Shown: positions 1,295 to 41,590, numbered from the stretch's first letter. The stretch: 57,625 bases of DNA from Minisyncoccia bacterium (GCA_049967535.1 JBMFSN010000001.1:1-57625); one strand, 5' to 3'. Notes: a model not told the origin generated them from the letters alone. Made by a program: numbers and translations.

Positions 1295-1297
1295 AAA

Positions 1298-2587
1298 ATG
1301 AAAAACAAAATTATTAAATGGGTTAAGAAATTAATACCTAAAAATCTTAAAAAAAATGCTTTTTTAAGAAAGGGGTTGGCTTATTTATCTAGCGGCCTTT
1401 TTGGTTTTCCTAGTAGACATTTAACTCTTATCGGAGTAACTGGTACTACGGGAAAAACTACCACTACTTTTATGATTAGAAGTATTCTGGAAGAGGCAGG
1501 CATCAAAACTGGTTTAATTGGAACTGCTGGTTATTATTTTGGTTCAGAAGTTGTTTATAATCAGAACGAAGGTCCAGGGACCACTCCTGATCCGTTTACC
1601 CTTCATCATATATTAAGAAAAATGATAGCCCAAAATGTCAAGGTGGTAATTTTAGAAGTTTCCTCATTTGGTTTAATGTATTATCGAACTTATGGCTTAA
1701 ACTTCCAATCAGCTGTTTTAACTAATATTGCTTTTAATCATCATGTCACTTTGCATGGCAGCATGGATAATTATGTCAAAGAAAAATTAAAATTATTTCA
1801 GTACCTCTCTCCAACAAGCTTAGCAGTTTTACCTTCGGAAAGTGAATATTTTGATGTTTTCAAAAAAGCTACTAAAGCTAAAATTGTCACTTATGGTGTA
1901 AATCCCCAAAATGATTTTTGGGCGGAAGATTCTAAAATTCATTGCAAAGATCAAATTTTTGATTTAAAATTAAAGATTCTTGGAAATTTTAATATCCTGA
2001 ATGCCTTGGCAGCGATAGCCGCTGTTTCCTTTTTGAAAATTGAGCCCTCTACTATAAAACAAGGATTAGAAAAATTAATCACTATCCCTGGTCGTTTAGA
2101 GTTATTACCAAGTCGAGCTCCTTTTCAAATTATTATTGATAAAGCAAATACTCCTTTAGCTTTCGAAAAGCTTATCGAATATTTAAAAAATGACTACCGA
2201 AAACAAAGTCACAAAATTATAGCTGTTTATGGTACTTTTCATGAAAGTCCAAAGGAAGAGAGAGATATGTTAGCTAAAATTGCAACCCAATTTTTTGATT
2301 TAATAATCTTTACAGAAGATGATCCGGCTAACGAGAAAAGAGAGAAAAGTTTGGATGATTTCCTTAGTTTTGTCCATCAAAATAATGTTGACCCCAATAA
2401 ATATTTAACAATTTTAAATCGAGAAGAAGCTATCAAGGCGGCTATTAATCATGCTCAAGCTAATGACTTGATAGTTATTTTAGGTAGAGGAAACGAGCAG
2501 TTTATGCTCTACCAAGATAAAAAGATTCCCTTTGATGACAGGGAAGTAACTAAAAATATCCTCAAAGAATTAAATTATTTATTATGA
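1298..2587 (+). CDS. murE: Mur ligase, MurE-like (UDP-MurNAc-L-Ala-D-Glu: diamino acid ligase)
   Basis: GVTGTTGKTTTT P-loop, GTTPDP and EVSSFGL motifs, and a Mur ligase C-terminal domain. The N-terminal domain is short. ATGA start/stop overlap with alaS. Confidence 0.8.
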   Translation: MKNKIIKWVKKLIPKNLKKNAFLRKGLAYLSSGLFGFPSRHLTLIGVTGTTGKTTTTFMIRSILEEAGIKTGLIGTAGYYFGSEVVYNQNEGPGTTPDPFTLHHILRKMIAQNVKVVILEVSSFGLMYYRTYGLNFQSAVLTNIAFNHHVTLHGSMDNYVKEKLKLFQYLSPTSLAVLPSESEYFDVFKKATKAKIVTYGVNPQNDFWAEDSKIHCKDQIFDLKLKILGNFNILNALAAIAAVSFLKIEPSTIKQGLEKLITIPGRLELLPSRAPFQIIIDKANTPLAFEKLIEYLKNDYRKQSHKIIAVYGTFHESPKEERDMLAKIATQFFDLIIFTEDDPANEKREKSLDDFLSFVHQNNVDPNKYLTILNREEAIKAAINHAQANDLIVILGRGNEQFMLYQDKKIPFDDREVTKNILKELNYLL

Positions 2588-4374
2588 CCTCTGAAGAATT
2601 AAGACAACAATTTTTAGATTTTTTTAAGGAAAAGGGACATAGAATAATACCTTCTTCCTCTTTAATTCCTGAAAACGACCCCTCTGTGCTTTTTACTACC
2701 GCTGGGATGCAACAATTTAAATATTACTATACAGGCAAGCAAAATCCATTAGTTGATAAACATTTTAGTATAAGTGAGCCTTTAAATAACAAAAATGTTG
2801 CTACTTGCCAAAAATGTTTAAGGACAAGTGATATCGAGTCAGTGGGCGATCAAAGCCATTTAACATTCTTCGAAATGTTAGGCAACTTTTCTTTTGGCGG
2901 TTATTTTAAAAAAGAAGCAATTACATTTGCTTATGAATTATTAAATTCCAAATTCCATATTCCAGATTCTAGAATAACTGTTACCGTATTTGAAGGAGAT
3001 AAAAACATTCCTCGTGATGAAGAGTCAGCAAAAACTTGGTATCAATTTGGTTTTTCTGAAAAGAACGGCAATTTACTTTTTTTGGGTAAAGATAGTAACT
3101 TTTGGGGTCCTACTGGAAATGAAGGACCATGCGGTCCTACTACAGAAATTTATGTTGACGGGATAGAAATTTGGAATTTAGTTTTTAATGAGTATTATAA
3201 ACATTTAGACCAAACTCTTACTCCTTTAACTATTAAAGGAGTAGATACAGGAATGGGCTTAGAAAGATTAGCTTTAGTAACCCAATATCCTCAGGATAAA
3301 AACAAAACTATTTATGATACGGACTTATTTCAAGATTTATTAACTTATCTTAAACATCAAGGCACTAAACAAGAGAGCGATAACTTATATCGTATTATTG
3401 CTGACCATTTTAAAGCTAGCGTTTTTTTGGCCGGGACTGGTATTGTTCCTTCTAACACCCAGCAAGGTTATATTTTGAGAAGATTAATTCGAAGAATTGT
3501 TCGCTTTAGTAAAATTTTAAATTTCAAAAACAATTGGATAGCAGAAGCCTATGAAATTATTAAGGAAAAATATGGTTATTTTTACCCAGAAATAAATAAT
3601 CAAGAGGAAATTTTATCTATCATAGACCAAGAAACTAATAAATTTGAATCTAGTTTAATAAAAGGATTAAAAGAATGGCAAAGAATAGTTAGTCAACTAT
3701 CAGAACAGGAAAAAACTATTCCTGGGGCAACAGCCTTTTATTTATACGAAAGTTATGGTTTTCCCATAGAAATTTTAGAAGAAATGGCTAAAGAAATAAA
3801 TAAAACAGTAGATCGTTCTTCTTTTGAAGCAGAATTTCAAAAACACCAAGTTATTTCTCGCGCAAGCCAAGAGAAAAAATTTGGCGGGCACGGAATAAAT
3901 GAGGTCAAAGACGAAGACAGCAAAAAACAAATTATAAAATTACATACTGCTACCCATTTACTTTTAGCTGCCTTAAGACAAATTATTGATTCTAAAATTG
4001 AGCAAAAAGGTTCTGATATTACCCCAGAGAGATTACGTCTAGATTTTCCTTTTTCTAGAAAATTAACAGAAGAAGAAATTAAAAAAATAGAAAATTTAAT
4101 TAATCAAAAAATTCAAGAAAACTTAGAAGTTCATTTCTATGAAACAAATTATGAGCAAGCAATTAAAGAGGGAGCTCTTGGTTCTTTCAAAGACAGATAC
4201 CCGGAAAAGGTAACTGTTTATGAAATAAAAAGTCCCCAGGATAATACGATTTTTTCTAAAGAGATTTGTGCTGGTCCTCATGTTTCTTCAACTAAGGAGA
4301 TGGGGGTGTTTAAAATTATCAAAGAAGAATCTGTAGGACAAGGCATAAGACGGATTAAAGCAACTCTAATTTAA
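2584..4374 (+). CDS. alaS: Alanine--tRNA ligase (short form, 596 aa)
   Basis: FTTAGMQQFK class II core, GPCGPTTEIY, and editing-domain motifs HTATHLL and CAGPHV. It ends shortly after the editing domain. Confidence 0.9.
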   Translation: MTSEELRQQFLDFFKEKGHRIIPSSSLIPENDPSVLFTTAGMQQFKYYYTGKQNPLVDKHFSISEPLNNKNVATCQKCLRTSDIESVGDQSHLTFFEMLGNFSFGGYFKKEAITFAYELLNSKFHIPDSRITVTVFEGDKNIPRDEESAKTWYQFGFSEKNGNLLFLGKDSNFWGPTGNEGPCGPTTEIYVDGIEIWNLVFNEYYKHLDQTLTPLTIKGVDTGMGLERLALVTQYPQDKNKTIYDTDLFQDLLTYLKHQGTKQESDNLYRIIADHFKASVFLAGTGIVPSNTQQGYILRRLIRRIVRFSKILNFKNNWIAEAYEIIKEKYGYFYPEINNQEEILSIIDQETNKFESSLIKGLKEWQRIVSQLSEQEKTIPGATAFYLYESYGFPIEILEEMAKEINKTVDRSSFEAEFQKHQVISRASQEKKFGGHGINEVKDEDSKKQIIKLHTATHLLLAALRQIIDSKIEQKGSDITPERLRLDFPFSRKLTEEEIKKIENLINQKIQENLEVHFYETNYEQAIKEGALGSFKDRYPEKVTVYEIKSPQDNTIFSKEICAGPHVSSTKEMGVFKIIKEESVGQGIRRIKATLI

Positions 4375-4430
4375 GGTTGATTATTGTTTAATATTTGCTA
4401 TAATAAATTAATTGCTTTTACCTAAAATCT

Positions 4431-5930
4431 ATGAAAAATAATCCTAAGAAAAAAATATTAGATATTTATCCTCCTCACACTTTTACTAAAAAAGAAGCAG
4501 AGGTTAATGAACCATCGAAAGATAATGATGTTTTTCATTATCGGGAAGAAACAGAAAATATTATAATTCGTATTGAACCTCAACCTATCAAGAAAGAAGA
4601 AAAAAAAGAAGAAAAAGAGGAAGAAAAAGCTTCTCTCCAAGAAAAACCTACTACCATTGAAGAAGAGTTAAGAAGTATTGGAATAGAAAATGAAGAGCCT
4701 ATTATAAAACCAGAATCATATGAATCTTCAGATTTTCAGACTTCTCGATTACAAGAACCAAGAAAAAACAGAATTCCTTTTGTTGTCTTATCTCTAGTTT
4801 TTCTTGGGTTAGTATACTATTTAGGATTTTTTGCTTTAGCCAAAGCAGAAGTTTCTATTACTTCAAAAAAACTCACTTTATCGTTAAATAATCAAGCCGT
4901 TCTCGTCGATAAAAATATTAGTGCTTCTAACTTAAATCAAAATACTATTCCGGGTAATTTATTTATCTTTCCTGAAAATGCCGAACGGGATTTTAATAGT
5001 ACCGGGCAAGGGAAAGATGAAAGAAAAGCCAAGGGCACCATTACCATTATTAATAATTTTTCTACCTTATCTCAAATCTTAGTAGCTAATACTAGATTTC
5101 AAACACCAGATGGCAAGATTTTTCGTTTAGATTCTCGTATTGCTATTCCTGGTGCGACTACTCAAGATGGAAAATTAATCCCTTCTTCTATTGATGCTAG
5201 TGTCACAGCTGACCAGCCAGGGCCTAATTATAATATTCCGCCTTGCACTGATAAATGTAAATTTACCATTCCGGGATTCCAAGGAACTCCAAAATTTGAA
5301 GGTTTTTATGGCCAAAGCAAAAGTCCCATGACCGGAGGTAGCTTAGGATCTACTCCCATGATTACTAACGATGATATAAAAAACGCCGAGGACATTATCT
5401 TAAAAACAATCAATGATAAAATAGCTGAAGATTTAAAAAATAAAATACCTAATAACTTGACTATTTTGGATGGAGCAAAAAGCAGCACTAATATTACTAA
5501 TTTATCCGATGGGGGAGTATCGGCTGGAGATTTTCGTCAGACTTTTACTGTTCAGGCCACTGGAGAAGTAAAGGTTATTGCTTTTAGAGAACAAGATTTA
5601 ATAGACTTAATTCGCAACCAACTCAATTCCCAAAAACCTGAACAATATGATTATTGTGGCAATCCAACTATTAATTATATAAACATTAAGCCAGATTTTA
5701 ATGCCGGAACAATGAAAATCATTCTTAATGCTACTCAAACTTTGTGCTATCATCTTGATCCTCAGTCCATTAAAAAAGATATCATGGGAAAAAATCAAAA
5801 AGATTTAGAAATGATTTTTAAGAGTATGGATGGAGTAGAATCTAGTAAAATTAAATTTTACCCTCTTTGGATTAAAAAAGTGCCTAATACTCTAAATAAA
5901 ATTAAAGTTTCTATTGACCCCACACCATAG
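4431..5930 (+). CDS. Hypothetical membrane-anchored protein with K/E low-complexity N-terminus
   Basis: 499-aa ORF with a KKEEKKEEKEEEK tract, one hydrophobic span (IPFVVLSLVFLGLVYYLGFFALA) and a large extracytoplasmic-looking domain. No family recognised. Confidence 0.6.
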   Translation: MKNNPKKKILDIYPPHTFTKKEAEVNEPSKDNDVFHYREETENIIIRIEPQPIKKEEKKEEKEEEKASLQEKPTTIEEELRSIGIENEEPIIKPESYESSDFQTSRLQEPRKNRIPFVVLSLVFLGLVYYLGFFALAKAEVSITSKKLTLSLNNQAVLVDKNISASNLNQNTIPGNLFIFPENAERDFNSTGQGKDERKAKGTITIINNFSTLSQILVANTRFQTPDGKIFRLDSRIAIPGATTQDGKLIPSSIDASVTADQPGPNYNIPPCTDKCKFTIPGFQGTPKFEGFYGQSKSPMTGGSLGSTPMITNDDIKNAEDIILKTINDKIAEDLKNKIPNNLTILDGAKSSTNITNLSDGGVSAGDFRQTFTVQATGEVKVIAFREQDLIDLIRNQLNSQKPEQYDYCGNPTINYINIKPDFNAGTMKIILNATQTLCYHLDPQSIKKDIMGKNQKDLEMIFKSMDGVESSKIKFYPLWIKKVPNTLNKIKVSIDPTP

Positions 5931-5967
5931 CAAGCTTTTAATTATGTACTATTCAAAGGTGTAGGGG

Positions 5968-5996
5968 TTGACTAAAATCGTTTATTTTGCTAAACT
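5968..5996 (+). promoter_or_regulatory. Candidate sigma-70 promoter of the infA-rpmJ-rpsM operon
   Basis: TTGACT (5968..5973), 17-nt spacer, then TGC-TAAACT (-10 at 5991..5996, extended TG). It lies 13 nt upstream of the infA ATG. Confidence 0.5.
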
Positions 5997-6008
5997 ACTA
6001 AAGTTTTT

Positions 6009-6224
6009 ATGACTCGTAATGAAGCATTGAGAAAAGAGGGGATTGTCACTGAAGCTTTGCGTAATGCAATTTTTCGTATTAAGCTAAATGATGGTCCAGA
6101 GGTCTTGGCACATTTATCTGGCAAGCTTCGTCTCAATAGAATAAAAATTTTAAATGGAGATAAAGTTTTGGTAGAACTGTCTTCCTACGATCCTACAAAA
6201 GGTCGGATAATTTATCGTCTATGA
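6009..6224 (+). CDS. infA: Translation initiation factor IF-1
   Basis: 71 aa, S1-like fold sequence [51 protein letters not shown]. Confidence 0.95.
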
Positions 6225-6334
6225 AAGTAAGAGCCTCAGTAAAAAAAATTTGTAATAATTGCAAAATTGTTAGGAGAAAAGGGCGTCTCTATGTAATTTG
6301 CAGTAATCCTAAACATAAACAAAGACAGGGATAA
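6221..6334 (+). CDS. rpmJ: 50S ribosomal protein L36 (not on the ORF track, 37 aa)
   Basis: Manual translation gives [37 protein letters not shown], with the CxxC...C...H zinc ribbon. ATGA overlap with the infA stop. This is the canonical infA-rpmJ-rpsM order. Confidence 0.9.
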
Positions 6335-6338
6335 TTTT

Positions 6339-6731
6339 ATGATACGTATTTTAGGAGTTGATCTCCCAGACAATAAAAATATTGAAATTTCATTAGCCTA
6401 TATCTATGGGATAGGTCCTTCTTTGTCTAAAAAATTATTAAAAGAAGCAAAAATTGATCCTCAGAAAAAAACAAAAGATTTAACTAGCGAAGAGGTTAAT
6501 ATCTTAAAGGATCTAATCGAGAAAAAAGCCATAAAAATAGAAGGAGATTTAAGAAGAGAAATTAAAGCTAATATTAAAAGACTGATAGATATTAGTGCTT
6601 ATCGTGGAGTTCGCCATATGAGAAAACTTCCCGTAAGAGGCCAAAGGACAAAAACTAATTCAAGAACAGTAAGAGGTAATGTAAGAAAAACTGTTGGTTC
6701 TGGAAGAAGAAAAGCTGCTTCACCTACATAA
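6339..6731 (+). CDS. rpsM: 30S ribosomal protein S13
   Basis: MIRILGVDLPDNKNIEISLAYIYGIG and a YRGVRHMRKLPVRGQRTKTN tail. Confidence 0.95.
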   Translation: MIRILGVDLPDNKNIEISLAYIYGIGPSLSKKLLKEAKIDPQKKTKDLTSEEVNILKDLIEKKAIKIEGDLRREIKANIKRLIDISAYRGVRHMRKLPVRGQRTKTNSRTVRGNVRKTVGSGRRKAASPT

Positions 6732-6800
6732 AATTGAGTATTCAGTATTGAGTATAATTGTTTTAAAATTAAAAATTATAAAATTAAAAATTGATATAAA
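6732..6800 (+). repeat. Intergenic modular heptamer-repeat cassette (TTGAGTA module, AATTGTTTTAAAA joint, AAAATTA module)
   Basis: aattgagtattcagtattgagtataattgttttaaaattaaaaattataaaattaaaaattgatataaa, immediately before the rpsK ATG. Confidence 0.85.
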
Positions 6801-7241
6801 ATGGGGAAAAAACGAGTTGTTACTAAATCAGGAGAAGACCTGAATAAAATTGAAGAAAAAATTAGTTCTTCTCAAGCCAAAGCTTCTAAAGCCCTTTTAG
6901 AAAAGGGGAGAATTTATATTGCTGCTTCGTATAATAATACTCTTATTTCTTTAACTAATTTAAAAGGAGAATTAATTGCTTGGAGCTCTGCTGGTACTTT
7001 AGGTTTTAAAGGACCCAAAAAAGCAACTCCTTTTGCTGCTTCTAAGGTAGTGGAGGCTTTACTAGAAAAAGTTCAAAAAAGCGGATTAAAAACAGTAGAG
7101 GTTTATGTTAAAGGCATAGGAGGAGGTAGGGAATCAGCTATTCGTTCTTTAGCTACTCATGGTTTAGATATTGATTTAATTAAAGACGTTACTCCTATTC
7201 CCCACAACGGACCTAGGCCACCTAAAGTTAGAAGAGTATAA
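6801..7241 (+). CDS. rpsK: 30S ribosomal protein S11
   Basis: GRIYIAASYNNTLISLTNLKGELIAWSSAGTLGFKGPKKATPFAA and DVTPIPHNGPRPPKVRRV. Confidence 0.95.
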   Translation: MGKKRVVTKSGEDLNKIEEKISSSQAKASKALLEKGRIYIAASYNNTLISLTNLKGELIAWSSAGTLGFKGPKKATPFAASKVVEALLEKVQKSGLKTVEVYVKGIGGGRESAIRSLATHGLDIDLIKDVTPIPHNGPRPPKVRRV

Positions 7242-7285
7242 AATATTAAATTATTTTTCAAAATTTTAACAACATTGGTATTTCT

Positions 7286-7900
7286 ATGGATGCTGAATGC
7301 AAAAAATGTAGAGCAGTAGGAGAAAAACTTTTTCTCAAAGGAGAAAAATGCTATACCCCAAAATGTCCTATGACAAGAAGAGGAATAGCTTATCACGGAA
7401 AGAGCAAAAGAAAACCTGCCCTTACTCCTTATGGCAGACAATTAATAGAAAAACAGAAAGCTAAATTAATTTACGGAATTAGAGAAAAACAGTTTCATCG
7501 TTATTTTGATTTAGCTTACAAGAAAAAGGGAGCTACTCCTGATATTCTAGCTAGTATGTTAGAAAAAAGATTTGATAATGTTATCTATCGTTCTGGTTTT
7601 GCTTTGAATAGAGCTTCCACCAGGCAATTAGTCTCTCATGGCCATTTTTTCCTCAATGGAAGAAAACACAATATTGCCTCTACGATTTTAAGAAAGGGTG
7701 ACGTTGTTTCTCTTAATCCTATCAGTCTTCAAAAGAAAGTATTTAAAGATATAAAAGAACGTCTAAAAAAATATACTGCCCCTAAATTTCTCGAAGTAGA
7801 TCCGGAAAAACTTACTAGCCGAGTAATCGCTGAGCCAGATTTGGAAGAATTAAAAATGAATATTGATTTTCCTTCAATAGTTGAATTTTATAGTAAATAA
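7286..7900 (+). CDS. rpsD: 30S ribosomal protein S4 (zinc-ribbon type)
   Basis: CKKCRAVGEKLFLKGEKCYTPKCP N-terminus, YGRQLIEKQKAKLIYGIREKQF, and an S4 RNA-binding domain (RQLVSHGHFFLNGRKHNIAS). Confidence 0.95.
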   Translation: MDAECKKCRAVGEKLFLKGEKCYTPKCPMTRRGIAYHGKSKRKPALTPYGRQLIEKQKAKLIYGIREKQFHRYFDLAYKKKGATPDILASMLEKRFDNVIYRSGFALNRASTRQLVSHGHFFLNGRKHNIASTILRKGDVVSLNPISLQKKVFKDIKERLKKYTAPKFLEVDPEKLTSRVIAEPDLEELKMNIDFPSIVEFYSK

Positions 7901-7986
7901 TTGAGTATTGAGTATTGGGTATTGAGTATAATTGTTTAAAAATTGTAAATTGTAAATTAGAAATTGTAAATTTTAACAACATTAGT
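7901..7986 (+). repeat. Intergenic modular heptamer-repeat cassette (TTGAGTA x4, AATTGTTTAAAA joint, AAATTGT x4)
   Basis: ttgagtattgagtattgggtattgagtataattgtttaaaaattgtaaattgtaaattagaaattgtaaatt followed by ttaacaacattagt. The ORF track reads this as a spurious N-terminus of rpoA. Confidence 0.85.
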
Positions 7987-8919
7987 ATGTTTCAATTACC
8001 AAGTTCAATTCAAAAAATAGAGCAGTTAAAAAATTACGGCAAATTTGAGATTGATGGGCTATATCCTGGATATGGCATTACTCTTGGTAATGCTCTAAGG
8101 CGGGTTTTAATTTCATCTTTACAAGGAGCAGCGGTAACTTCTTTTAAAGTGGAAGGAGTTCAGCACGAGTTTAGTGCTATTCCTTATGTGATGGAAAGTG
8201 CCCTGGATTTAATGCTTAATCTTAAACAAATCCAAGTAAAAAATTATAGTAATGAACCTCAAATATTAATAATGAATATTTCCGGAGAAAAAGAAGTAAC
8301 TGCTAAAGATTTTGATAAAAATGCTATGGTAGAGATTTTAAATCCAGAATTGCATCTTGCTACTTTGACAGATAAAAAAGCTAAACTAAATATGGAAGTT
8401 ACCATAGAAAATGGTTTGGGTTATGTTTTAGTAGAAGAAAGAAGCAAAGAAAAATTACCTATTGGCACTATTGCCGTAGATGCCATGTTTAGCCCTGTTG
8501 TTCGAGCAAATTTTAAAGTAGAAAATATGCGAGTAGGGGACAGAACCGACTACAATAAACTAATCATTGAAATTGAAACTAATGGTTCAATAACTCCTGA
8601 TATTGCTCTAGCTCAAGCCTCTCAGATCTTAAAAGAACATTTTGAACTTATTGAGAGCAAATTTACTCCAGAAGAAGAAATTAAAACTAATGTTTCTTCG
8701 GCATTCAAACAAGAAAAAAAGGAACCCAAAGATATTATGATCGAAGATTTAGAATTAAGTGCCAAAACTAAAAATACCTTAATTAATAATGGTATTAAAA
8801 CCTTGGCGGGCTTACTGCGTTATCGAGAAGATAAATTATCTAATTTTGAAGGATTAGGACCAAAATCATTAGAAGAAATAAAAAAGGTATTACAAAATTT
8901 AGAATATACTTTAAAATAA
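7987..8919 (+). CDS. rpoA: DNA-directed RNA polymerase subunit alpha
   Basis: GYGITLGNALRRVLISSLQGAAVTS and a C-terminal HhH domain (LELSAKTKNTLINNGIKTLAGLL). Start moved to ATG 7987 because the track's TTG 7915 start lies inside the repeat cassette. Confidence 0.9.
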   Translation: MFQLPSSIQKIEQLKNYGKFEIDGLYPGYGITLGNALRRVLISSLQGAAVTSFKVEGVQHEFSAIPYVMESALDLMLNLKQIQVKNYSNEPQILIMNISGEKEVTAKDFDKNAMVEILNPELHLATLTDKKAKLNMEVTIENGLGYVLVEERSKEKLPIGTIAVDAMFSPVVRANFKVENMRVGDRTDYNKLIIEIETNGSITPDIALAQASQILKEHFELIESKFTPEEEIKTNVSSAFKQEKKEPKDIMIEDLELSAKTKNTLINNGIKTLAGLLRYREDKLSNFEGLGPKSLEEIKKVLQNLEYTLK

Positions 8920-8920
8920 A

Positions 8921-9277
8921 ATGAGACACTTAAAAGAAGGAAAAAAATTTCACCGAAAAACCGACCAGAGAAGAGCTTTACTAAAAGGGTTAATGGCTAA
9001 TTTAATCATGCGAGGAAAAATTACCACCACCTTAAGTAAGGCAAAAGAAACAAAGAAAAAAATTGAAAGATTAATTACAGTTGCCAAAAAGCAAGATTTG
9101 GCTTCTTTAAAAAGAATTAAAGCCACTTTACCGGATAAAGCTAGTAAAAAATTATATTACGAAATTGCTCCTTTGTATTTAAATACAAAGGGAGGATATA
9201 CTAGAATAATTAAAACTTCCTTAAGAAAAAAAAGAGACGCTTCTGATTTAGTAATTTTAGAGCTTATTCAAAATTAA
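8921..9277 (+). CDS. rplQ: 50S ribosomal protein L17
   Basis: MRHLKEGKKFHRKTDQRRALLKGLMANLIMRGKITTTLSKAKE, in the position after rpoA. Confidence 0.9.
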   Translation: MRHLKEGKKFHRKTDQRRALLKGLMANLIMRGKITTTLSKAKETKKKIERLITVAKKQDLASLKRIKATLPDKASKKLYYEIAPLYLNTKGGYTRIIKTSLRKKRDASDLVILELIQN

Positions 9278-9289
9278 AAATTTGTTATT

Positions 9290-9646
9290 ATGCCTCAATC
9301 TAATAATACCATCATTCTGGATGCCACTGACCAATCTTTGGGACGATTAGCTTCTCGTATTGCTGTTTTATTACAAGACAAAAATAAAGCTACTTTTGAA
9401 CCTAATAAACCCGGTACCAACACTATTATCGTTAATAATTTTAGTAAAATTAAATTTAAGGGCAATAAACCCCAAACTAAAATTTATTATAAACACACTG
9501 GTTACTTAGGGCACCTCAAAGAAACAACTTTGGATAAAATGTTTGAAAAAGACCCTCAAAGAGTTTTAAAACTAGCTGTTAGGGGAATGCTTCCCAAAAA
9601 TAAACTTCGTGACCAACGTTTAAAAAGATTAAAAATTAATTTATAG
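9290..9646 (+). CDS. rplM: 50S ribosomal protein L13 (short, 118 aa)
   Basis: ILDATDQSLGRLASRIAVLLQDK, HTGYLGHLKE and GMLPKNKL. Canonical rplM-rpsI pair. Confidence 0.85.
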   Translation: MPQSNNTIILDATDQSLGRLASRIAVLLQDKNKATFEPNKPGTNTIIVNNFSKIKFKGNKPQTKIYYKHTGYLGHLKETTLDKMFEKDPQRVLKLAVRGMLPKNKLRDQRLKRLKINL

Positions 9647-9655
9647 AACAACTGT

Positions 9656-10117
9656 ATGGTTACTCAAAATTCTAACATTACCAAAGAAGAGAAAGCTATA
9701 AAAACAAAAGAAGAAAAATCTTCTTCTAAGGAAAAATATTTTGAAGCAGTGGGAAGAAGAAAAGAATCGGTAGCTCGAGTAAGAATTAACCAAGCTCAGC
9801 CAGGTATTTCTATTAACAATAAAACTCTAGAACAATATTTCCCCCTTCTTTCTTATCAGTCAAAAATTTTATCTCCTCTTAAAGAAGCTAATTTAGAAAA
9901 TAAATTTTTTATTTCCGTTAAAGTACAGGGCGGGGGATTAACAGGACAAGCTGAGGCTATTCGTTTGGGTATTAGCCGTTCCTTGGTTAAATTTAATGAA
10001 AAATTACAATCTTTACTAAGAAATAAAGGGTTTCTTACTCGTGATAGCCGAGCCGTGGAAAGAAAGAAATATGGACTGAAAAAAGCTCGCCGCGCTCCTC
10101 AATGGCAAAAACGATAA
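9656..10117 (+). CDS. rpsI: 30S ribosomal protein S9 with K/E-rich N-terminal extension
   Basis: GRRKESVARVRI, VKVQGGGLTGQAEAIRLGISRSL and a TRDSRAVERKKYGLKKARRAPQWQKR tail. Confidence 0.9.
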   Translation: MVTQNSNITKEEKAIKTKEEKSSSKEKYFEAVGRRKESVARVRINQAQPGISINNKTLEQYFPLLSYQSKILSPLKEANLENKFFISVKVQGGGLTGQAEAIRLGISRSLVKFNEKLQSLLRNKGFLTRDSRAVERKKYGLKKARRAPQWQKR

Positions 10118-15639: not shown

Positions 15640-15834
15640 ATGGATTGGAATCAATTTGTCACTCAATTTTCTCAATTCGTAGCCAATGCTTTGTCAGAAC
15701 TAAGTAAATTAGTCAATCAAATTTTTTTGTCAGGCATTATAGGCAACCTTTTGTCCATTCTCAAAGCTATTGGAAAATTTATTATTGCCGCTTTAGAAAT
15801 GATTGTCAGAATTCTCAAATTCTTTATCCATTAA
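15640..15834 (+). CDS. Small hydrophobic/amphipathic protein (64 aa), hypothetical
   Basis: The ORF is preceded by the same repeat cassette that precedes real genes. Sequence FLSGIIGNLLSILKAIGKFIIAALEMIVRILKFFI looks membrane-active. No homology recognised. Confidence 0.4.
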   Translation: MDWNQFVTQFSQFVANALSELSKLVNQIFLSGIIGNLLSILKAIGKFIIAALEMIVRILKFFIH

Positions 15835-15863
15835 GGGAAAAGAGGGGATTGGTTGTCTTATAT

Positions 15864-15892
15864 TTGCTTCAAATATCTAAAAATGATATAAT
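15864..15892 (+). promoter_or_regulatory. Candidate sigma-70 promoter of tdk
   Basis: TTGCTT (15864..15869), 17 nt, then TGA-TATAAT (-10 at 15887..15892, extended TG). Confidence 0.5.
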
Positions 15893-15927
15893 ATTTATAG
15901 CACTTTAAAAATATAGGGGGGTGTGAA

Positions 15928-16506
15928 ATGAATGAAAAAGCAGTTGGAAGACTAGAAGTAATTACCGGATGCATGTTTTCCGGTAAAAGTGAAGAATTAA
16001 TAAGAAGGCTTCGAAGGGCTCAGATTGCAAAACAAACAACATTGGTATTTAAACCGAAAATTGATAATCGTTATTCTAATATTGAAGTGGTGTCTCATTC
16101 CGGAGTTAAAATTGATGCCATCCCAGTTAAAGATTCAAATGTTATATTAGAATATGTTGCTCGATATCCTAATGTTCAAATAATCGGAATCGATGAGGGA
16201 CAATTTTTTGAACCTAATATTGTTTTCTTAGTACGTGAACTTCTGGAACAAAATAAAAGAATAATGGTCGCTGGACTTGATATGGATTTTCGAGGAGAGC
16301 CTTTTGGAGCAATGCCCATACTTATGGCTATGGCTGACGAAGTATTAAAATTACATGCTATTTGCACCGTTTGCGGTGAAGACGCCATGATGACTCAAAG
16401 AATAATTAATGGTCGGCCTGCGCGCTATGATGAACAGATTATTTTAATTGGGGCTTCGGAAACATATGAAGCCAGATGCAGAAAACATCACGAAATACGA
16501 TATTAA
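15928..16506 (+). CDS. tdk: Thymidine kinase
   Basis: VITGCMFSGKSEELIRR P-loop, IGIDEGQFF, and a C-terminal zinc motif CTVCGEDA...RCRKHH. Strong RBS ggggggtg. Confidence 0.9.
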   Translation: MNEKAVGRLEVITGCMFSGKSEELIRRLRRAQIAKQTTLVFKPKIDNRYSNIEVVSHSGVKIDAIPVKDSNVILEYVARYPNVQIIGIDEGQFFEPNIVFLVRELLEQNKRIMVAGLDMDFRGEPFGAMPILMAMADEVLKLHAICTVCGEDAMMTQRIINGRPARYDEQIILIGASETYEARCRKHHEIRY

Positions 16507-16520
16507 AAGGGAGGCTAGAA

Positions 16521-16742
16521 ATGAAAAAAAATAAAATGACAAAGAGTAATAAATTAAAAAGAAAGATAGACAATGAAAAACTTAACGAAAAACTGGAAGA
16601 ATTAATCAAAGATTTACCCCAATTAATTCAGACAATCATAGAATATAAACTTAATATCCCATTAACCTTTTCTCAAGAGGAGAGTGTCAAATATAATATT
16701 CAGGAATATTTGTCCAATTTAAATAAAAAATATGGCAAATAA
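16521..16742 (+). CDS. Hypothetical small protein (73 aa)
   Basis: Track ORF 16476..16742. The ATG at 16521 follows a strong RBS (aaagggaggctagaa) and avoids overlap with tdk. Lys-rich, helical; no family recognised. Confidence 0.5.
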   Translation: MKKNKMTKSNKLKRKIDNEKLNEKLEELIKDLPQLIQTIIEYKLNIPLTFSQEESVKYNIQEYLSNLNKKYGK

Positions 16743-16746
16743 AATT

Positions 16747-16773
16747 ATCGGGACCAAATGTCCCGATTTTTTA
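16747..16773 (+). terminator. Rho-independent terminator after the tdk operon
   Basis: ATCGGGAC-caaat-GTCCCGAT followed by TTTTTT. Confidence 0.75.
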
Positions 16774-16830
16774 TTTATAATAATTTATTAGTACTTTATT
16801 AGTACTAATGATTGAGTAATAGGGAAGTAC

Positions 16831-16858
16831 TTGACAGTTACTTTCCAGGCGCTATAAT
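16831..16858 (+). promoter_or_regulatory. Consensus sigma-70 promoter upstream of the recombinase gene
   Basis: TTGACA (16831..16836), 16 nt, TATAAT (16853..16858). Followed by a 9-bp leader hairpin ATACTTCGC/GCGAAGTAT (16868..16899). Confidence 0.55.
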
Positions 16859-16952
16859 GACATTAAGATACTTCGCATAAGGTAGCTTTAGCGAAGTATG
16901 ATATCTAAAGTAAGGGTTTAATTAACTAATTATCACTCCCCTAACAAAATCT

Positions 16953-17897
16953 ATGAAAAAAAGCCAAAAACCCATTCTTGAACATATTCCAGAATTTATG
17001 GAATATTTAGATATAGAAAAAGGTTTGAGCCATAACAGTCAGATTACTTATAATCGTTTAATTCATAAGTTTGAAAATTGGCTTAAGGAGAATAAATTGG
17101 CCACTCTCCTACCACATGAACTGACAGCAGAGCATCTTTGGCAATACCGCGTCTATTTATCCAAAATTTATAATAAAAACAGCCGTCAACCATTAAAAAG
17201 GGCTTCCATTAACTATTATCTTATTGTTTTAAGAAATCTTTTAAATTATTTTGCTGATAGAGACATGACAGCTTTACCAGCAGAAAAAGTAAAACTTTTT
17301 TTGGATAAAAAAGAAAAAAGCATTAAGTTTTTAAATTTAGAACAAGTTGAAGATTTGCTCTCTGCCCCAGATATTAGTAATATCAGCGGCTTAAGAGATA
17401 AAGCCATTTTAGAAACTTTATTTTCTACTGGTTTAAGAGTAGCGGAACTTGTCAGTCTCAATCGCAATCAAATTAAATTAACTAATTTAAATGATGATTT
17501 GGAAATAAATATTATTGGTAAAGGTAATCGTATTAGACCGGTTTATTTATCTCCTCGAAGTTTAATATCCATTAAAGATTATTTAGATAAAAGAACTGAT
17601 GACGAAGAAGCATTATTTATTAGCTTCAAAGGCCCAACCTCTCAAGAACACCGTTTAACCACCCGTTCCATAGAAAATATTGTTAGAAAATATGTTAATA
17701 AAGCCGGGATCTCTATCTTGGCCAGCCCTCACACCTTAAGACATAGCTTTGCCACTGATTTATTAACTCAAGGCGTTGATTTAAGAACTGTCCAAGAGTT
17801 TTTAGGTCATAAAAACATTGCTACCACTCAAATTTATACTCATATTACTAATAAACGCTTAAAAGATATTCATAAAAAATATCATAGTGAAGTATAA
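16953..17897 (+). CDS. Tyrosine recombinase, XerC/XerD family
   Basis: N-terminal SAM-like core-binding domain. Catalytic residues are in context: LFSTGLRVAELVSL (Arg), HTLRHSFAT (His-x-x-Arg), LGHKNIATTQIYTH (His...Tyr). Confidence 0.85.
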   Translation: MKKSQKPILEHIPEFMEYLDIEKGLSHNSQITYNRLIHKFENWLKENKLATLLPHELTAEHLWQYRVYLSKIYNKNSRQPLKRASINYYLIVLRNLLNYFADRDMTALPAEKVKLFLDKKEKSIKFLNLEQVEDLLSAPDISNISGLRDKAILETLFSTGLRVAELVSLNRNQIKLTNLNDDLEINIIGKGNRIRPVYLSPRSLISIKDYLDKRTDDEEALFISFKGPTSQEHRLTTRSIENIVRKYVNKAGISILASPHTLRHSFATDLLTQGVDLRTVQEFLGHKNIATTQIYTHITNKRLKDIHKKYHSEV

Positions 17898-17900
17898 TAA

Positions 17901-17925
17901 AAAAGCCCGGTTTTAACCGAGCTTT
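17901..17925. terminator. Possible bidirectional terminator between convergent genes
   Basis: AAAAGCCCGGTTTTAACCGAGCTTT: an imperfect GC stem flanked by an A-run and a T-run. Confidence 0.4.
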
Positions 17926-17930
17926 GTAAA

Positions 17931-18428
17931 CTACTCTTTAACTTGCTGTTTAGACGCCAATTTTTTATAAATTCTCATTGGCAAGGACCTTATCAGCAAT
18001 TCCCTTAATGAATACACTAGCTTCCAAAAACTATTTGGAAGTTTGATTTCGATGTATTCGATATCAAAATCCAATTTATTATCAAGCACAAGTTTCAAAT
18101 CACGTTTTATTCGAGGAATATGAATATCAGAAGCTATAATTCTAATATGCCGCAAATTGTCTAACATAGAAATATAGCCCTTGATCTCTTGCAAATAATC
18201 CAGTGTCATTTCATTTTTGGTCAGAACAACTAAATTAGAGCGAGGAGCACTTTCAATTATAGTATTGGGAGATACAAATAAGATAGCTTCTTGATCAGTA
18301 AAAGTCATCCAAAATTGTTTATTCGGAACCAAAAGACCATGTTGATTGTAAGGAAAATAGATAATGGCCTTTTGAACCCCAACGAATTTCGCCAACTTAA
18401 TTACATCGTCTTGACTTTCTTGTCTCAT
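17931..18428 (-). CDS. Hypothetical protein, weakly DUF218/YdcF-like
   Basis: 165 aa with a strong RBS (aaggaggtgagttag). IIASDIHIPRIKRDL resembles the DUF218 xTSxxHxxRA motif. The assignment is tentative. Confidence 0.45.
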   Translation of the reverse strand: MRQESQDDVIKLAKFVGVQKAIIYFPYNQHGLLVPNKQFWMTFTDQEAILFVSPNTIIESAPRSNLVVLTKNEMTLDYLQEIKGYISMLDNLRHIRIIASDIHIPRIKRDLKLVLDNKLDFDIEYIEIKLPNSFWKLVYSLRELLIRSLPMRIYKKLASKQQVKE

Positions 18429-18542
18429 CTAACTCACCTCCTTGCCTTTTGGCAGAATTTCTTTATATCTTTAAATTAAAACTCGATGTTTCTAATCGTT
18501 TATTTAGTTTTCAAAATACAACACTACACTTGACTATATTTT

Positions 18543-18571
18543 ATAATACCATACTTTATTTTATGTGTCAA
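18543..18571 (-). promoter_or_regulatory. Candidate promoter for 17931..18428
   Basis: On the minus strand: TTGACA (18571..18566), 17 nt, TATTAT (18548..18543). This leaves a leader of about 110 nt. Confidence 0.45.
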
Positions 18572-18586
18572 TAGAACTTAATGTAA

Positions 18587-18614
18587 ATAAAAAGGTAGGG
18601 ACTATCCCCTACCT
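18587..18614 (-). terminator. Rho-independent terminator of the four-gene orphan operon
   Basis: Minus strand: AGGTAGGG-gatagt-CCCTACCT followed by TTTTTATTT. The stem overlaps the TAG stop of the 261-aa ORF. Confidence 0.7.
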
Positions 18615-19394
18615 TATAAGATTTATTATTCCATTTTGGATCTTTATAGTTTTTTCACCAATATGAGCTGTTAGAGTGTTTGGATATAACGATAACAATT
18701 TTTCTAATCCTTGCCATAATAATTTTTTCGCTTGTTCAAGATTTTGTTTTTTAACTAAATCATAAATTTCATACTGAAGTTTTCGATAGATGACTAACTT
18801 AGTTTTTTCTTGATAAGGATTTACATATACCGTACCAAGTTTTTTAAAAACATCAAAATATTCGCTCCATTTGATATTTGAGGTATCTTTTTTCTCTAGT
18901 ACATTTATCATTTCTATTATTGCCAAAATTACATTTCGTATTATTAAATTGCAGCGCTCTTTTTCCTGAACCAATTTTTCCGCCCTATGTAATACTTTCT
19001 TTACGATAGATAAATCTCTTTTCTCTTGTTCCGTTAAAGCAAATTTTACCGCCTCTAAATTATTTTTTAGATTTGAAATAGATATTTCTAAATCGCTATT
19101 CTCAAGAATTGCATTAGCTTTAAGCAATGAATTAACCTTATCAACAGTATCCTCTACTTGATAAATTTTCCCTTTATGTTCTACTTTCTTTGGCCATCTA
19201 ATAATCAGATCTTCATAATGAAATGTCACATGAAGGAGTTGCTGCCTAATAGCAGCATCAATATCTTTCACAGACCAAGTTTTTTCTCTTCCAATAATTA
19301 CCACCTCGCCTTTACTATTCACTTTCAATTTTGCAGTATGAAGAGATCTTCCATAAGGAATAGTCTGGACGAATGTTTCTATATTACTTTTCAT
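18609..19394 (-). CDS. Hypothetical protein (261 aa), last gene of the orphan operon
   Basis: Strong RBS (gaaggaggtgaaagaaa). Beta-rich N-terminal third, then long helical or coiled-coil regions. No family recognised. Confidence 0.6.
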   Translation of the reverse strand: MKSNIETFVQTIPYGRSLHTAKLKVNSKGEVVIIGREKTWSVKDIDAAIRQQLLHVTFHYEDLIIRWPKKVEHKGKIYQVEDTVDKVNSLLKANAILENSDLEISISNLKNNLEAVKFALTEQEKRDLSIVKKVLHRAEKLVQEKERCNLIIRNVILAIIEMINVLEKKDTSNIKWSEYFDVFKKLGTVYVNPYQEKTKLVIYRKLQYEIYDLVKKQNLEQAKKLLWQGLEKLLSLYPNTLTAHIGEKTIKIQNGIINLIR

Positions 19395-19611
19395 TTTCTT
19401 TCACCTCCTTCTTTTTTCTCTTCTGATCTAAAACTTCAACTTCCATGTTTACATAGTTTATTTTAGGATCAAAATGGAATTCTTTATTAAACCTCTTAGC
19501 AATAATCAATCCAGCTTGTTGTTCCGAGTATGCCCAGACAAAATACTCTTTTATTTTATCTGAAAAATTCAACACCTGAACTTTAAAAAGTTTCTTTCTC
19601 ATCTCAATCAT
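19384..19611 (-). CDS. Hypothetical small protein (75 aa, or 72 aa from ATG 19602)
   Basis: Overlaps the downstream ORF by 11 nt. The AGGAGG spacing fits the second ATG (19602) better. No family recognised. Confidence 0.55.
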   Translation of the reverse strand: MIEMRKKLFKVQVLNFSDKIKEYFVWAYSEQQAGLIIAKRFNKEFHFDPKINYVNMEVEVLDQKRKKKEVKENEK

Positions 19612-19807
19612 CTCCTCCTAAACCCAATAAAAGCATTTCCGCCAATTCTCTAAAAACTCGTCTGGTTTTAGCATCAAGTTGACCTTGTTTAGGCGTTGGA
19701 GTAATTTTTATTTTTCCTGTTTCCGTTCTTCTGTATCCCCTGGTAACACCTTTTCGAACAAGAACTACTTGATTTGTCACTTCGTTTGTTTTTTTATTTT
19801 CTTTCAT
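19604..19807 (-). CDS. Hypothetical small basic protein (67 aa), paralog of 19804..20022
   Basis: RBS agaggaggcgtaaa and an ATGA overlap with the upstream ORF. Its C-terminal KTRRVFRELAEMLLLG resembles KTKRAWLKVARLVLLG of the neighbour. Confidence 0.55.
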   Translation of the reverse strand: MKENKKTNEVTNQVVLVRKGVTRGYRRTETGKIKITPTPKQGQLDAKTRRVFRELAEMLLLGLGGDD

Positions 19808-20022
19808 TTTACGCCTCCTCTAGGTGTATAATTTGGTCCTAAAAGAACCAATCTAGCAACTTTTAACCAAGCTCGTTTCGTCTTCTGAGCCAGATTCTGA
19901 GCATAAATGATCTTAACTGTCTTACCTTTAATAGTAAAGATCGCTCGGGTATTCCCTTCTTTCATCTCTAAAGTATGCCATTGAGGCACCTTTAGAATCG
20001 TCTTTCCTACTGCTTTTTCCAT
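19804..20022 (-). CDS. Hypothetical small basic protein (72 aa), first gene of the orphan operon
   Basis: RBS aaaaggaggttaaa, 72 aa. No family recognised. Confidence 0.55.
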   Translation of the reverse strand: MEKAVGKTILKVPQWHTLEMKEGNTRAIFTIKGKTVKIIYAQNLAQKTKRAWLKVARLVLLGPNYTPRGGVK

Positions 20023-20266
20023 TTTAACCTCCTTTTATTTCTAGATTTTATATATAAAAACTATCAAATTTTCAGTTTTCAAATTACAAATTAGAACAAA
20101 TAATAGATATGAGAATTCCCATATCTACTTAAATTATCGCATATTTTCAATCATTTGTCAAATTAGTTAGAGTTACATAATCTTTGGTTGTAAATAAAGC
20201 CAATTCATGGTAAATTATTATATATTATTCGTATAATTCGTATCCATTCATATATTTGCATCGATT

Positions 20267-21448
20267 ATGAGAATCTCCTACTCCAGTTTAGAAAACTTTA
20301 AAAATTGCCCCCTAAAATATAAATTTTCAGAAATTGATAAAATCAAAGAGCCTAAAACCAAAGAGGCTATTTTTGGTAATTATATTCATCAAATATTAAA
20401 ATGGTTTTATCAGCAAGACCCTCACTTCCCTACCCTCGACGGACTACGGGAATATTATTATAATCACTGGCCAAAGAAAGAAGACAATTTTTCTTGGCAA
20501 AATGAGCAAGAAGAAAAAGATTATTTCCAAGAAGGTTTAAGAATGCTAGAAGAATTTTATAAAAAAAATATGCCCCCGAAAACTATGATTATGGATTTAG
20601 AAACAAGATTTGAGGCAGTAATTGACGAAACTCCCAATGAACCGGGTGGAAAACATATTCTGACTGGAGTAATTGATAGAATTGATAAACTACCAGATGA
20701 AACTATAGAAATTATTGATTATAAAACTGGAAAACGTATGCCTTCCCAAAACGATGTAGATACTAATCTACAACTTTCTATCTATGCCTTAGGCCTTCAA
20801 AGAAAATGGCCAAAAATTAAATTAGAGGATCTTCGTTTGAGTCTTTATTTCTTAAAATTTGGCGAAAAAATAGAAACCAAAAAAACTCAAGAAGATATCA
20901 ATCAAACCCAAACTAAATTGATTGATTTAATCCATCAAATTCAAAATAGTTCCTTCGAACCAAAAGCTTCACCTCTTTGCAATTGGTGTGGTTATAAGCC
21001 AATTTGTCCCCTTTGGCGCCATCTTTATGAAAAAAACCTTGATAAACAATTTCAGGGTATTAATATCGAAGAGAAAATTGACGAATATTTTACCCTGCGC
21101 CAAAATAAAGAGCAAATTGAAGCTAAACTTAAAGAATTGAAAGACTTAATTGAAGCCTATAGTCAGCAAAACGGATTAAAAAGAGTTTATGGCAATAATG
21201 GCTATTTTAATCAAGAAGTATCTCATAAAATTTCTTATAATAAAACGCAATTAAAAGCCATCTTAGAACCTTTAGGGAAATGGGACGAAATTTTAGCTAT
21301 TGATCCTCAAAAATTAGAAAAAATATTAAAAGAAATTCCGCCAGAAGCGAGAGAAAAAATTGAACAAGCCAAAAAAATAGTGAAAAAATATGAATATTTA
21401 GAGGCTAATGATAAAAAGAAAAAAGAAATTGAAGAAGAAATGCATTAA
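20267..21448 (+). CDS. PD-(D/E)XK nuclease, Cas4/RecB/AddB-like with Cys cluster, plus C-terminal coiled-coil extension
   Basis: N-terminal Cys (ENFKNCPLKYKF), GVIDRIDKL...IEIIDYKTGK (D...D/E-x-K core), QLSIYAL, and C-terminal CNWCGYKPIC (4-Cys Fe-S pattern). About 140 extra K/E-rich residues follow. Confidence 0.8.
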   Translation: MRISYSSLENFKNCPLKYKFSEIDKIKEPKTKEAIFGNYIHQILKWFYQQDPHFPTLDGLREYYYNHWPKKEDNFSWQNEQEEKDYFQEGLRMLEEFYKKNMPPKTMIMDLETRFEAVIDETPNEPGGKHILTGVIDRIDKLPDETIEIIDYKTGKRMPSQNDVDTNLQLSIYALGLQRKWPKIKLEDLRLSLYFLKFGEKIETKKTQEDINQTQTKLIDLIHQIQNSSFEPKASPLCNWCGYKPICPLWRHLYEKNLDKQFQGINIEEKIDEYFTLRQNKEQIEAKLKELKDLIEAYSQQNGLKRVYGNNGYFNQEVSHKISYNKTQLKAILEPLGKWDEILAIDPQKLEKILKEIPPEAREKIEQAKKIVKKYEYLEANDKKKKEIEEEMH

Positions 21449-39271: not shown

Positions 39272-39447
39272 AAGTGAGGGACGGAGGAGGTGGGATTCCT
39301 CTTCGGTCAATTGCCTGACGACAATTGCCTCCGAGCCTGGCCTCGCGGTGCTCGCCTTTTGCTTCGCAAAAACTCGCACAGCGCTCCGGCCTTCGAATTC
39401 CCACCCGCAAACCAAGCAGTTGGTTTGCTCTCCTTCCTCGCTCACTT
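39272..39447 (-). ncRNA. GC-rich structured element of unknown class, immediately 3' of tRNA-Ser
   Basis: Sharp GC-rich island in an AT-rich window. An 18-nt closing helix pairs 39447..39430 with 39289..39272 (15/18). Perfect 9-bp hairpin at 39428..39407. Contains an exact copy of tRNA positions 71-87. Confidence 0.4.
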
Positions 39448-39456
39448 TGTTCGCTG

Positions 39457-41518: not shown

Positions 41519-41590
41519 ATTTATATTTTTATTTATATTTTTTAGTAATTTTACGACCTCCTTTTATATTATACTAAATTTCTCATGTTT

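Follow-up and report, generated by a model that had tools for sequence, protein, structure and literature searches.

Strong Shine-Dalgarno sequences on accessory genes beside xer and a dif-like site in a Parcubacteria-type genome whose 16S rRNA lacks the anti-Shine-Dalgarno motif

Introduction

Pairing between the Shine-Dalgarno (SD) sequence of a messenger RNA and the anti-SD at the 3′ end of 16S rRNA is the textbook mechanism of start-site selection in bacteria. In Bacteroidia initiation is SD-independent, the anti-SD being retained but sequestered, and rpsU is nevertheless SD-led. Here we describe positions 15,864 to 20,022 of a 57,625-nucleotide stretch of DNA from a Minisyncoccia bacterium (GCA_049967535.1, JBMFSN010000001.1:1-57625; the whole stretch is hereafter the window), a block in which seven genes carry strong SDs although the only assembled 16S gene of the genome has no anti-SD. 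As in Bacteroidia, most genes of this genome lack an SD and have A/U-rich leaders, and a few begin with strong SDs. However, the anti-SD within 16S rRNA is the known reader in Bacteroidia, whereas here it is absent, and the SD-led set is accessory rather than a ribosomal protein gene.

That some Parcubacteria have lost the anti-SD has already been published. The report in question detected the motif in only 48% of Parcubacteria, the lineages concerned overlapping the group without uL1 (Tsurumaki et al. 2022, RNA 28:1041, PMC9297842). The genome studied here resembles them in having a 16S 3′ end without CCUCC(U). The passages of it that were consulted mention no retained minority of SD-led genes, whereas the SD-led minority of the block has a 10-nt canonical consensus, is kept on homologues and is no less abundant than among anti-SD-bearing relatives. 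The literature that we searched likewise contained no account of strong, correctly spaced, canonical SDs persisting on a defined class of genes in Parcubacteria without an anti-SD.

The block also contains a tyrosine recombinase gene, xer, preceded by a dif-like site, and a slot of small variable genes on the far side of xer. Single-recombinase Xer systems with dif beside the gene are XerS/difSL of streptococci and lactococci, and XerH/difH of Helicobacter and Campylobacter. The locus shares with these a single Xer gene, a unique 28-nt imperfect palindrome of 11-6-11 arrangement immediately beside it, and a terminus defined by skew. It differs in that the site lies between the promoter and the start codon, in the 5′ untranslated region of xer, and is bracketed by a covarying GGGGAG/CTCCCC repeat. 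Some mobile elements integrate at dif via the host Xer (IMEX). The modules described here are like these elements, and like phage morons, in being self-contained units of promoter, SD, open reading frame (ORF) and terminator, in consisting of small orphan genes that vary between relatives, and in lying beside dif. Unlike in IMEX, no duplicated or degenerate dif flanks any module, and the slot is about 1 kb from the dif-like site, its promoter and leader staying fixed while the genes change. Chromosomal integrons also place a tyrosine recombinase by an array of variable small ORFs, each with its own ribosome-binding site, behind a fixed promoter, but the array described here, found at the 3′ end of the recombinase gene, is convergent with that gene.

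On balance, we lean towards reading the block as the terminus region of a Parcubacteria-type chromosome, with accessory modules on both sides of a core xer-dif pair and with SDs that are a maintained second start signal. The dif-like site sits in the leader of the single core xer, at the switch in GC skew. Accessory modules flank the pair, tdk and a 73-aa ORF to the left and a family-wide variable slot of small, fast-evolving orphans to the right, the slot genes being transcribed from a conserved promoter of consensus type with a conserved leader. An SD with the consensus AAGGAGGTGA precedes these accessory genes and hardly any others, its GGAGG 6-9 nt before the AUG and with no U at position -1. 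In this reading, selection would keep the SDs as a second signal for starting accessory genes in particular, and they would not be decaying scars of one recent import.

Materials and methods

The window is contig C1 of the source genome (G000; relatives are likewise given as G numbers), an assembly of 600 kb in 106 contigs with 32% GC and 99.6% completeness. The nearest named relatives of its recombinase are metagenome-assembled genomes of Candidatus Paceibacterota and Candidatus Kuenenbacteria, and the source genome is therefore taken to be a Parcubacteria-type member of the Patescibacteria. ORFs were called with a simple longest-ORF caller, which gave 578 ORFs genome-wide and 64 genes in the window; the 67-aa and 73-aa genes of the block were missed or mis-started by it. 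SDs were scored as the duplex energy (kcal/mol) of the 18 nt upstream of each start with the canonical anti-SD, and random ATGs from the same genome served as the control. Family comparisons covered up to 27 genomes for tdk, 26 relatives for xer and 24 genomes read for the dif-like site. Start contexts were pooled over the non-redundant ORFs of the family loci fetched (67 SD-led and 167 others).

Results

Strong SDs are concentrated on the genes of the block

A preliminary description of the block had claimed seven strong SDs, and all seven are present (Table 1). Each of the seven genes has a GGAGG-type motif 5-10 nt before its start codon, and at overlapping gene junctions the SDs fall within the coding sequence of the upstream gene. 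Across the 578 ORFs, the class at or below -12 kcal/mol was enriched against random ATGs (9 observed, 1.3 expected). The class between -9 and -12 kcal/mol was without excess (6 vs 6), and weaker classes were at or below expectation. Only 15 genes (2.6%) reached -9 kcal/mol or lower. Within the window this was true of 5 of the 64 called genes, all five between 15.9 and 20.0 kb, to which the 67-aa and 73-aa genes add two; most of the authentic cases in the strongest class lie within the block. The observation is confirmed. Upstream regions in the genome are A/T-rich, G being at about 0.1, and 63% of genes have T at -1.

SD-led starts differ from native ones in more than the SD. In the pooled family loci, T stands at -1 in 7% of SD-led starts (n=67) vs 62% of others (n=167, p=1e-15); an SD excludes the native signal, a U before the AUG. 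GGAGG and ATG are most often separated by 6-9 nt. The extended consensus around the GGAGG core is AAGGAGGTGA, the exact complement of the canonical 16S tail UCACCUCCUU over a match of 10 nt. In most family and order genomes AAGGAGG-N4-10-ATG outnumbered its reversed control, as a rule by a factor of about 2-10; G000 itself showed no excess (15 vs 12).

Outside the block, tmk and thyX are among the authentic SD-led genes; they stand between gatB and rplK (contig C51, 393-1722). A box reading AAGGAGGT is found at 41556-41563 of the window (minus strand), directly after a -10 box (TAGTATAAT) and 32 nt upstream of the lemA start, which is outside SD spacing. SD-led genes are also present on contig C19 (7.4 kb), together with a 725-aa protein resembling a TonB-dependent outer-membrane receptor (150-2327) and a transposase-like fragment (7110-7364), both recognised by eye; this contig is probably bin contamination.

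Table 1. Features of the block and its flanks, in window coordinates. SD sites on the minus strand are the reverse complement of the positions listed.
Feature	Position	Strand	Remarks
64-aa small protein gene, left core flank	15640..15834	+	after gltX; no SD; homologues at the same position in relatives
tdk SD, GGGGGGTG	15916-15923	+	duplex -12.3 kcal/mol
tdk (thymidine kinase), accessory	15928..16506	+	PF00265 E=1.9e-55; NF003296 269 bits
73-aa ORF SD, AGGGAGG	16508-16514	+	
73-aa orphan ORF	16521-16742	+	
GC-stem terminator after tdk/73-aa module	16747..16767	+	
xer promoter, TTGACA-16-TATAAT	16831..16858	+	12 of 12; conserved GGGRAG box just upstream
dif-like site, ACTTCGCATAA-GGTAGC-TTTAGCGAAGT	16870..16897	+	28 nt, 11-6-11 imperfect palindrome, within xer 5′ untranslated region
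XerC/D-like tyrosine recombinase gene (xer)	16953..17897	+	PF00589, PF02899; no SD
GC-stem terminator between convergent xer and 165-aa genes	17902..17925	-	called on minus strand, read as serving both
165-aa orphan gene	17931-18428	-	own promoter; no family match
165-aa ORF SD, AAGGAGGTG	18434-18442	-	
165-aa gene promoter	18571-18543	-	
Terminator of four-gene operon	18592..18615	-	
261-aa orphan gene	18609-19394	-	
261-aa ORF SD, AAGGAGGTG	19402-19410	-	
75-aa gene	19384..19619	-	range includes SD
75-aa ORF SD, AGGAGG	19614-19619	-	
67-aa gene	19604..19820	-	range includes SD
67-aa ORF SD, GAGGAGG	19814-19820	-	
72-aa gene, first in operon	19804..20034	-	range includes SD
72-aa ORF SD, AAGGAGGTT	20026-20034	-	
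Conserved leader motif, TTGTAATTTGAAAACTGA	~20071-20090	-	reverse complement of these positions
Cassette promoter, TTGACA-17-TG-GATAAT	20161-20133	-	
Cas4-like PD-(D/E)XK nuclease gene, right core flank	20267..21448	+	PF12705 E=5.7e-40; Cas4 models; no SD

The 16S tail has lost the anti-SD

In the only assembled 16S gene of the genome, GAAACUUUUAUUUU is aligned where the Rfam consensus has GGAUCACCUCCUUU, and CCUCC occurs nowhere in the gene. Pairing of the block's SDs with the tail of the cell's own 16S rRNA is therefore impossible. G006 and G009, which belong to two other genera of the family, have a tail of this type, and CCUCC is absent from all 30 16S tails examined across about 25 families of the order. 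Among other orders of the class, GATCACCTCCTTTCT is kept in 7 of the 19 sampled families and missing from 12. These tails are consistent with the published proportion of anti-SD-bearing Parcubacteria (PMC9297842). Counts of AAGGAGG-N4-10-ATG were alike in members of the class that keep GATCACCTCCTT and in those without it.

The 16S genes of G006 and G009 contain a group-I-like intron near position 1506, ahead of the tail (L026, ~700-1520; L028, ~700-1520, minus strand), with an ORF that by eye resembles LAGLIDADG homing endonucleases; G000 is without the intron, and Rfam misaligned the 16S 3′ end in the two intron-bearing genes. On contig C51, rplK is followed by tmk-thyX and not by rplA, an arrangement consistent with the uL1-less group.

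A core xer gene and a dif-like site at the replication terminus

The recombinase scored best on XerD, XerC and XerA models (about 195-219 bits, under their equivalog cut-offs). It is the only full-length tyrosine recombinase of the genome and is present in 25 of the 26 family relatives at 54-83% identity, adjoining gltX in most of the loci read. The dif-like site occurs only once in the genome. Of the 24 family genomes read, 22 have it upstream of xer, where it takes one of two sequence forms. Its left arm shares CGCATAA with the XerC arm of E. coli dif. The maximum of the cumulative G-C curve is at 16916, 19 nt from the dif-like site, and gene orientation flips there, from 18 plus and 1 minus on the left to 12 plus and 33 minus on the right. 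The unique dif-like site, the skew maximum and the flip in orientation identify the replication terminus of the chromosome, with a xer-dif pair. Recombination by Xer at the 28-nt site is putative.

A box of the GGGGAG type closely precedes the xer -35 (~16822-16830), and a CU-rich box complementary to it lies right before the xer ATG (~16933-16943). This inverted-repeat pair brackets the xer promoter, the dif-like site and the leader, and it covaries between genomes, reading GGGGAG/CTCCCC in G006, GGGGAGAG/CTCTCCCC in G009 and GGGAAGAG/CTCTTCCC in G010 (L036, L115, L119).

Accessory modules lie on both sides of xer

To the left, tdk occurs at one and the same place in three of the 27 family genomes, and all three copies are SD-led (GGGGGGTG in G000, AAGGAGGTG in G006 and AGGGAGGTG in G010). 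Its nearest homologues outside the clade are from Caldisericota, Chloroflexota and Bacillota. At the place of the 73-aa gene, G006 has a 75-aa ORF with the SD AAGGAGGTG that was judged homologous by eye. The module of tdk and the 73-aa gene appears to be shared with sister genera.

To the right, the slot between xer and the Cas4-like nuclease gene is filled in almost every relative read. It holds 1-5 small genes convergent on xer, almost all with strong SDs, and its content varies between genera, with some of the genes homologous. The overall order of gltX, 64-aa gene, (tdk), xer, SD-led cassette, Cas4-like nuclease and L27 recurs across genera of the family. Whatever genes follow, the slot is headed by the extended -10 promoter TTGACA-N17-TG-TATAAT in 9 of 9 relatives compared, and 7 of these nine have the leader motif (ACTTGCAATTTGAAAAC and variants; TTGYAAYTTGAAAAC; L117, L122, L124, L125, L127 and L129 are among the loci). 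The cassette genes of G000 overlap by 4-11 nt, and five cassette proteins are without a match in Pfam, PHROGs, PADLOC and NCBIfam. Of all block proteins, those of tdk, xer and the nuclease gene alone matched a family library.

The family of the 261-aa cassette protein has only nine members, itself included, in a database of 5.8 billion proteins. Homologues in 5 relatives (21-48% identity) are all SD-led, and the synteny is the same in the relatives and in the one metagenome contig examined. Its AlphaFold2 model (pLDDT 77) had no fold match in PDB or BFVD. The 165-aa protein was compared with the DUF218 gene at the same position in G007, and the two are not related. For the 75-aa gene, the annotated start leaves 2 nt after AGGAGG, and Met4 at 19602 leaves 11 nt and a product of 72 aa (region 19600-19611). 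Met4 is probably the true start, judging from a by-eye alignment with the G006 and G007 homologues, MKK(N)LYK.TVLNF.

The block is not a single recent island

The preliminary description took the block for DNA imported from an SD-using lineage as an integrated or plasmid- or phage-derived island. In one respect this holds: the SD-led genes are accessory, as seen from the scarcity of tdk and its outside-clade homologues in other phyla, from the differing slot content and from the exchange of tmk-thyX. The block is not, however, one integrated element. A single recent 4.2-kb island of phage or plasmid origin, arriving with its own recombinase and with SDs that have not yet decayed, would account for SDs that are canonical and very strong, for the patchy tdk with its nearest outside homologues in Caldisericota, Chloroflexota and Bacillota, and for the consensus promoters and private terminators. 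Both of the latter were recovered as claimed, namely three sigma-70 promoter matches of 11-12 of 12 (Table 1) and 7 terminator-like GC stems vs 2.1 +/- 1.4 in shuffles. Nevertheless we consider such an island very improbable, and the synteny largely refutes it. The recombinase that was to be the integrase is a sole, core and SD-less Xer with its own dif-like site, and the architecture is repeated in other genera.

Nor is the composition of the block atypical: GC content is 0.29-0.39 vs 0.33 for the genome, and codon scores lie within 0.5-2.5 standard deviations of the genome mean, the largest deviations belonging to the shortest genes. A comparison of presence and absence gave a divided answer, with tdk absent from 24 of 27 family genomes but the slot occupied in almost every relative. 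Conservation of synteny across relatives, which had been named as evidence against an import, is partly found, in that the architecture recurs from genus to genus within the family, with SDs retained on homologous cassette genes.

Hallmark genes or matches of phages and plasmids were also missing from the block. PHROGs and PADLOC gave only generic tdk, integrase and nuclease matches, no phage or plasmid DNA matched the block beyond tdk and xerD, and IMG/VR contained no relative of the 261-aa protein. The absence of significant flanking direct repeats, already remarked upon, was confirmed, leaving no att repeats: the candidates at 15856/20248 and 15894/20287 were not significant, the best pair having p ~0.04 vs random windows. 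Integration of the IMEX type was rejected, there being no second or degenerate dif site in the genome. An integron was rejected as well: the recombinase reaches 90 bits on the integron-integrase model, where the cut-off is 265, and repeated attC-like elements were not found; since the cassette genes overlap, there is no room for attC sites.

Search for a reader of the SDs

No reader of the SDs was found among the places searched, namely 16S rRNA, extensions of the 16S tail, tail-like loci and CsrA. A relocated anti-SD in an extended 16S tail was rejected: the candidate in G000, UUUCUCCUC, lies 20 nt after helix 45 and is an arm of a spacer hairpin that covaries in G006 and G009. No CU-rich tail extension proved to be conserved when the order's 30 tails were compared. 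When GGATCACCTCCTT was sought throughout the order, a single exact match was obtained, in GC-rich non-rRNA sequence belonging to no Rfam family. CsrA was dismissed as a reader, the genome having no csrA gene.

All CACCTCC/ACCTCCT sites of the genome were listed, and those on the larger contigs include no hidden RNA resembling a 16S tail. They are antisense to SDs, coding, arms of rRNA-spacer hairpins, or the 3′ strand of a tRNA-Ser and its downstream copy; further non-coding sites lie on small contigs. The 3′ strand of tRNA-Ser(GGA) (39272-39290, minus strand) and the copy ending a downstream GC-rich insert (39456-39472, minus strand) read CCCACCUCCUCCG. On the larger contigs these are the only non-coding CACCUCC sites that are neither antisense to an SD nor an rRNA-spacer hairpin arm, and the only anti-SD-like RNA end seen. 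Because it belongs to the acceptor stem, the resemblance is probably a coincidence.

In these circumstances the GGAGG motif might be read not by ribosomes but as an operator, through which an RNA-binding regulator, or an antisense or structural RNA, tunes or silences the accessory genes. A 16S rRNA without an anti-SD would suit this proposal, as would the box before lemA with its non-SD spacing and the covarying repeat around the xer promoter, dif-like site and leader, which shows G-rich boxes pairing at the locus. We nevertheless hold it to be improbable. A tight spacing of 6-9 nt and a match of 10 nt to the canonical 16S tail are expected if ribosomes read the motif, the SDs at overlapping junctions lie within upstream coding sequence as in translational coupling, and CsrA is not encoded.

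Persistence and mobility of SD-led genes

SDs are kept on homologues that have diverged to 21-66% identity. Retention was seen for tdk in three genera, for the 261-aa family in six genomes, for the 73-aa and 75-aa genes, and for thyX in 12 of 15 family genomes. Deoxynucleotide salvage is well represented among the SD-led genes (tdk, tmk, thyX and NT5C), and genes of this kind are typical phage cargo.

Two further SD-led clusters were seen in relatives. In G002 (L137, C1:196000-207000), a 7-kb run of about 12 SD-led genes (2940-9676) follows two 75-aa genes, shortly downstream of apparent rplQ, rplM and rpsI. It contains an NT5C deoxynucleotidase, a metallophosphatase with a weak helix-turn-helix, a trypsin-like peptidase, an HNH nuclease and tiny Cys-rich ORFs, and to judge from its gene content looks like a mobile element. 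A cluster in G012 encodes a probable glycosyltransferase and secreted-looking proteins, as assessed by inspection of the sequences.

Several observations weigh against the maintenance of SDs by selection, among them the unsuccessful search for a reader. SDs can be lost while the gene stays: thyX is without one in G006, G001 and G016 and in families f14 and f20, and in G007 a 15-nt indel has taken out the SD of tmk, the spacer being nearly identical apart from it. The genes also move. The thyX copies of G000 and G007 are 98% identical although the genera differ and their gltX genes are 71% identical (C51; L039), and the thyX tree conflicts with taxonomy. In the tdk tree G000 and G006 group together (97/94 support) and G010 falls elsewhere, in a poorly resolved cluster, and the G000 allele of the 261-aa gene is far more diverged from G006 and G007 than is xer. 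With a gene pool in motion, retention of SDs on homologues could partly reflect replacement of alleles from the pool. The exact complementarity to the canonical tail would fit an origin in anti-SD-bearing lineages, which are present in sister orders. Finally, the ORF caller was crude, and some SD-led genes on small contigs are probably contamination or mis-binned.

In a rival account, the SDs are functionless hitch-hikers of a mobile accessory pool (phage morons, dif-associated or other small elements) that is re-seeded from anti-SD-bearing Patescibacteria or their elements. The neighbourhood of the terminus and dif would be a landing hot spot, genes would be lost or replaced before their SDs decay, and host translation would be SD-independent. 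It would accommodate a consensus that complements the tail still present in 7 of the 19 families sampled from the other orders within the class, horizontal transfer of thyX at up to 98% identity across genera, the tolerance of SD loss, slot content that differs between genera, the salvage genes, and SD-led islands of relatives that carry HNH, NT5C and other genes of mobile-element type. It sits less well with a 261-aa family of which nine members are known among 5.8 billion proteins, with none in IMG/VR and with every contig examined belonging to this lineage and showing its synteny. Composition is native, the energy distribution has no tail of decaying SDs, and SD-led genes are no fewer in genomes without the anti-SD than in those that bear it. 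The conserved promoter and leader of the slot also argue for a resident, regulated locus. We regard this account as a serious possibility, if on the whole an unlikely one.

Discussion

Because related genera keep the SDs, these look like a maintained second start signal and not like the scar of one recent import. Maintenance is suggested by their retention on diverged homologues, by an energy distribution without a decay tail and by tight spacing. It is also suggested by the exclusion of the native U at -1, by native composition, by cassette families that are specific to the lineage and by the conserved promoter and leader. The data show the anatomy of the locus, the loss of the anti-SD, the confinement of SDs to accessory genes, their survival on homologues from other genera and the native composition; from these we infer that selection maintains the SDs. 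Between functional SDs kept in this way and hitch-hiking relics of a mobile pool, the former seem somewhat more likely.

If the SDs are functional, a reader for them would have to exist beyond those known, and accessory genes would have their own route to the ribosome. More tentatively, Patescibacteria without an anti-SD may possess a reader of AAGGAGGTGA, whether RNA or protein and possibly derived from mobile elements. Such a reader would provide a private initiation channel for accessory and mobile genes, apart from the U-AUG, A/U-rich mode of the core genes. If the SDs are not functional, they would provide a clean marker, and a clock, for gene flow into SD-blind genomes. In either case, the terminus landmark formed by xer and the dif-like site, with its adjoining variable slot, is useful for orienting and comparing these fragmented genomes.

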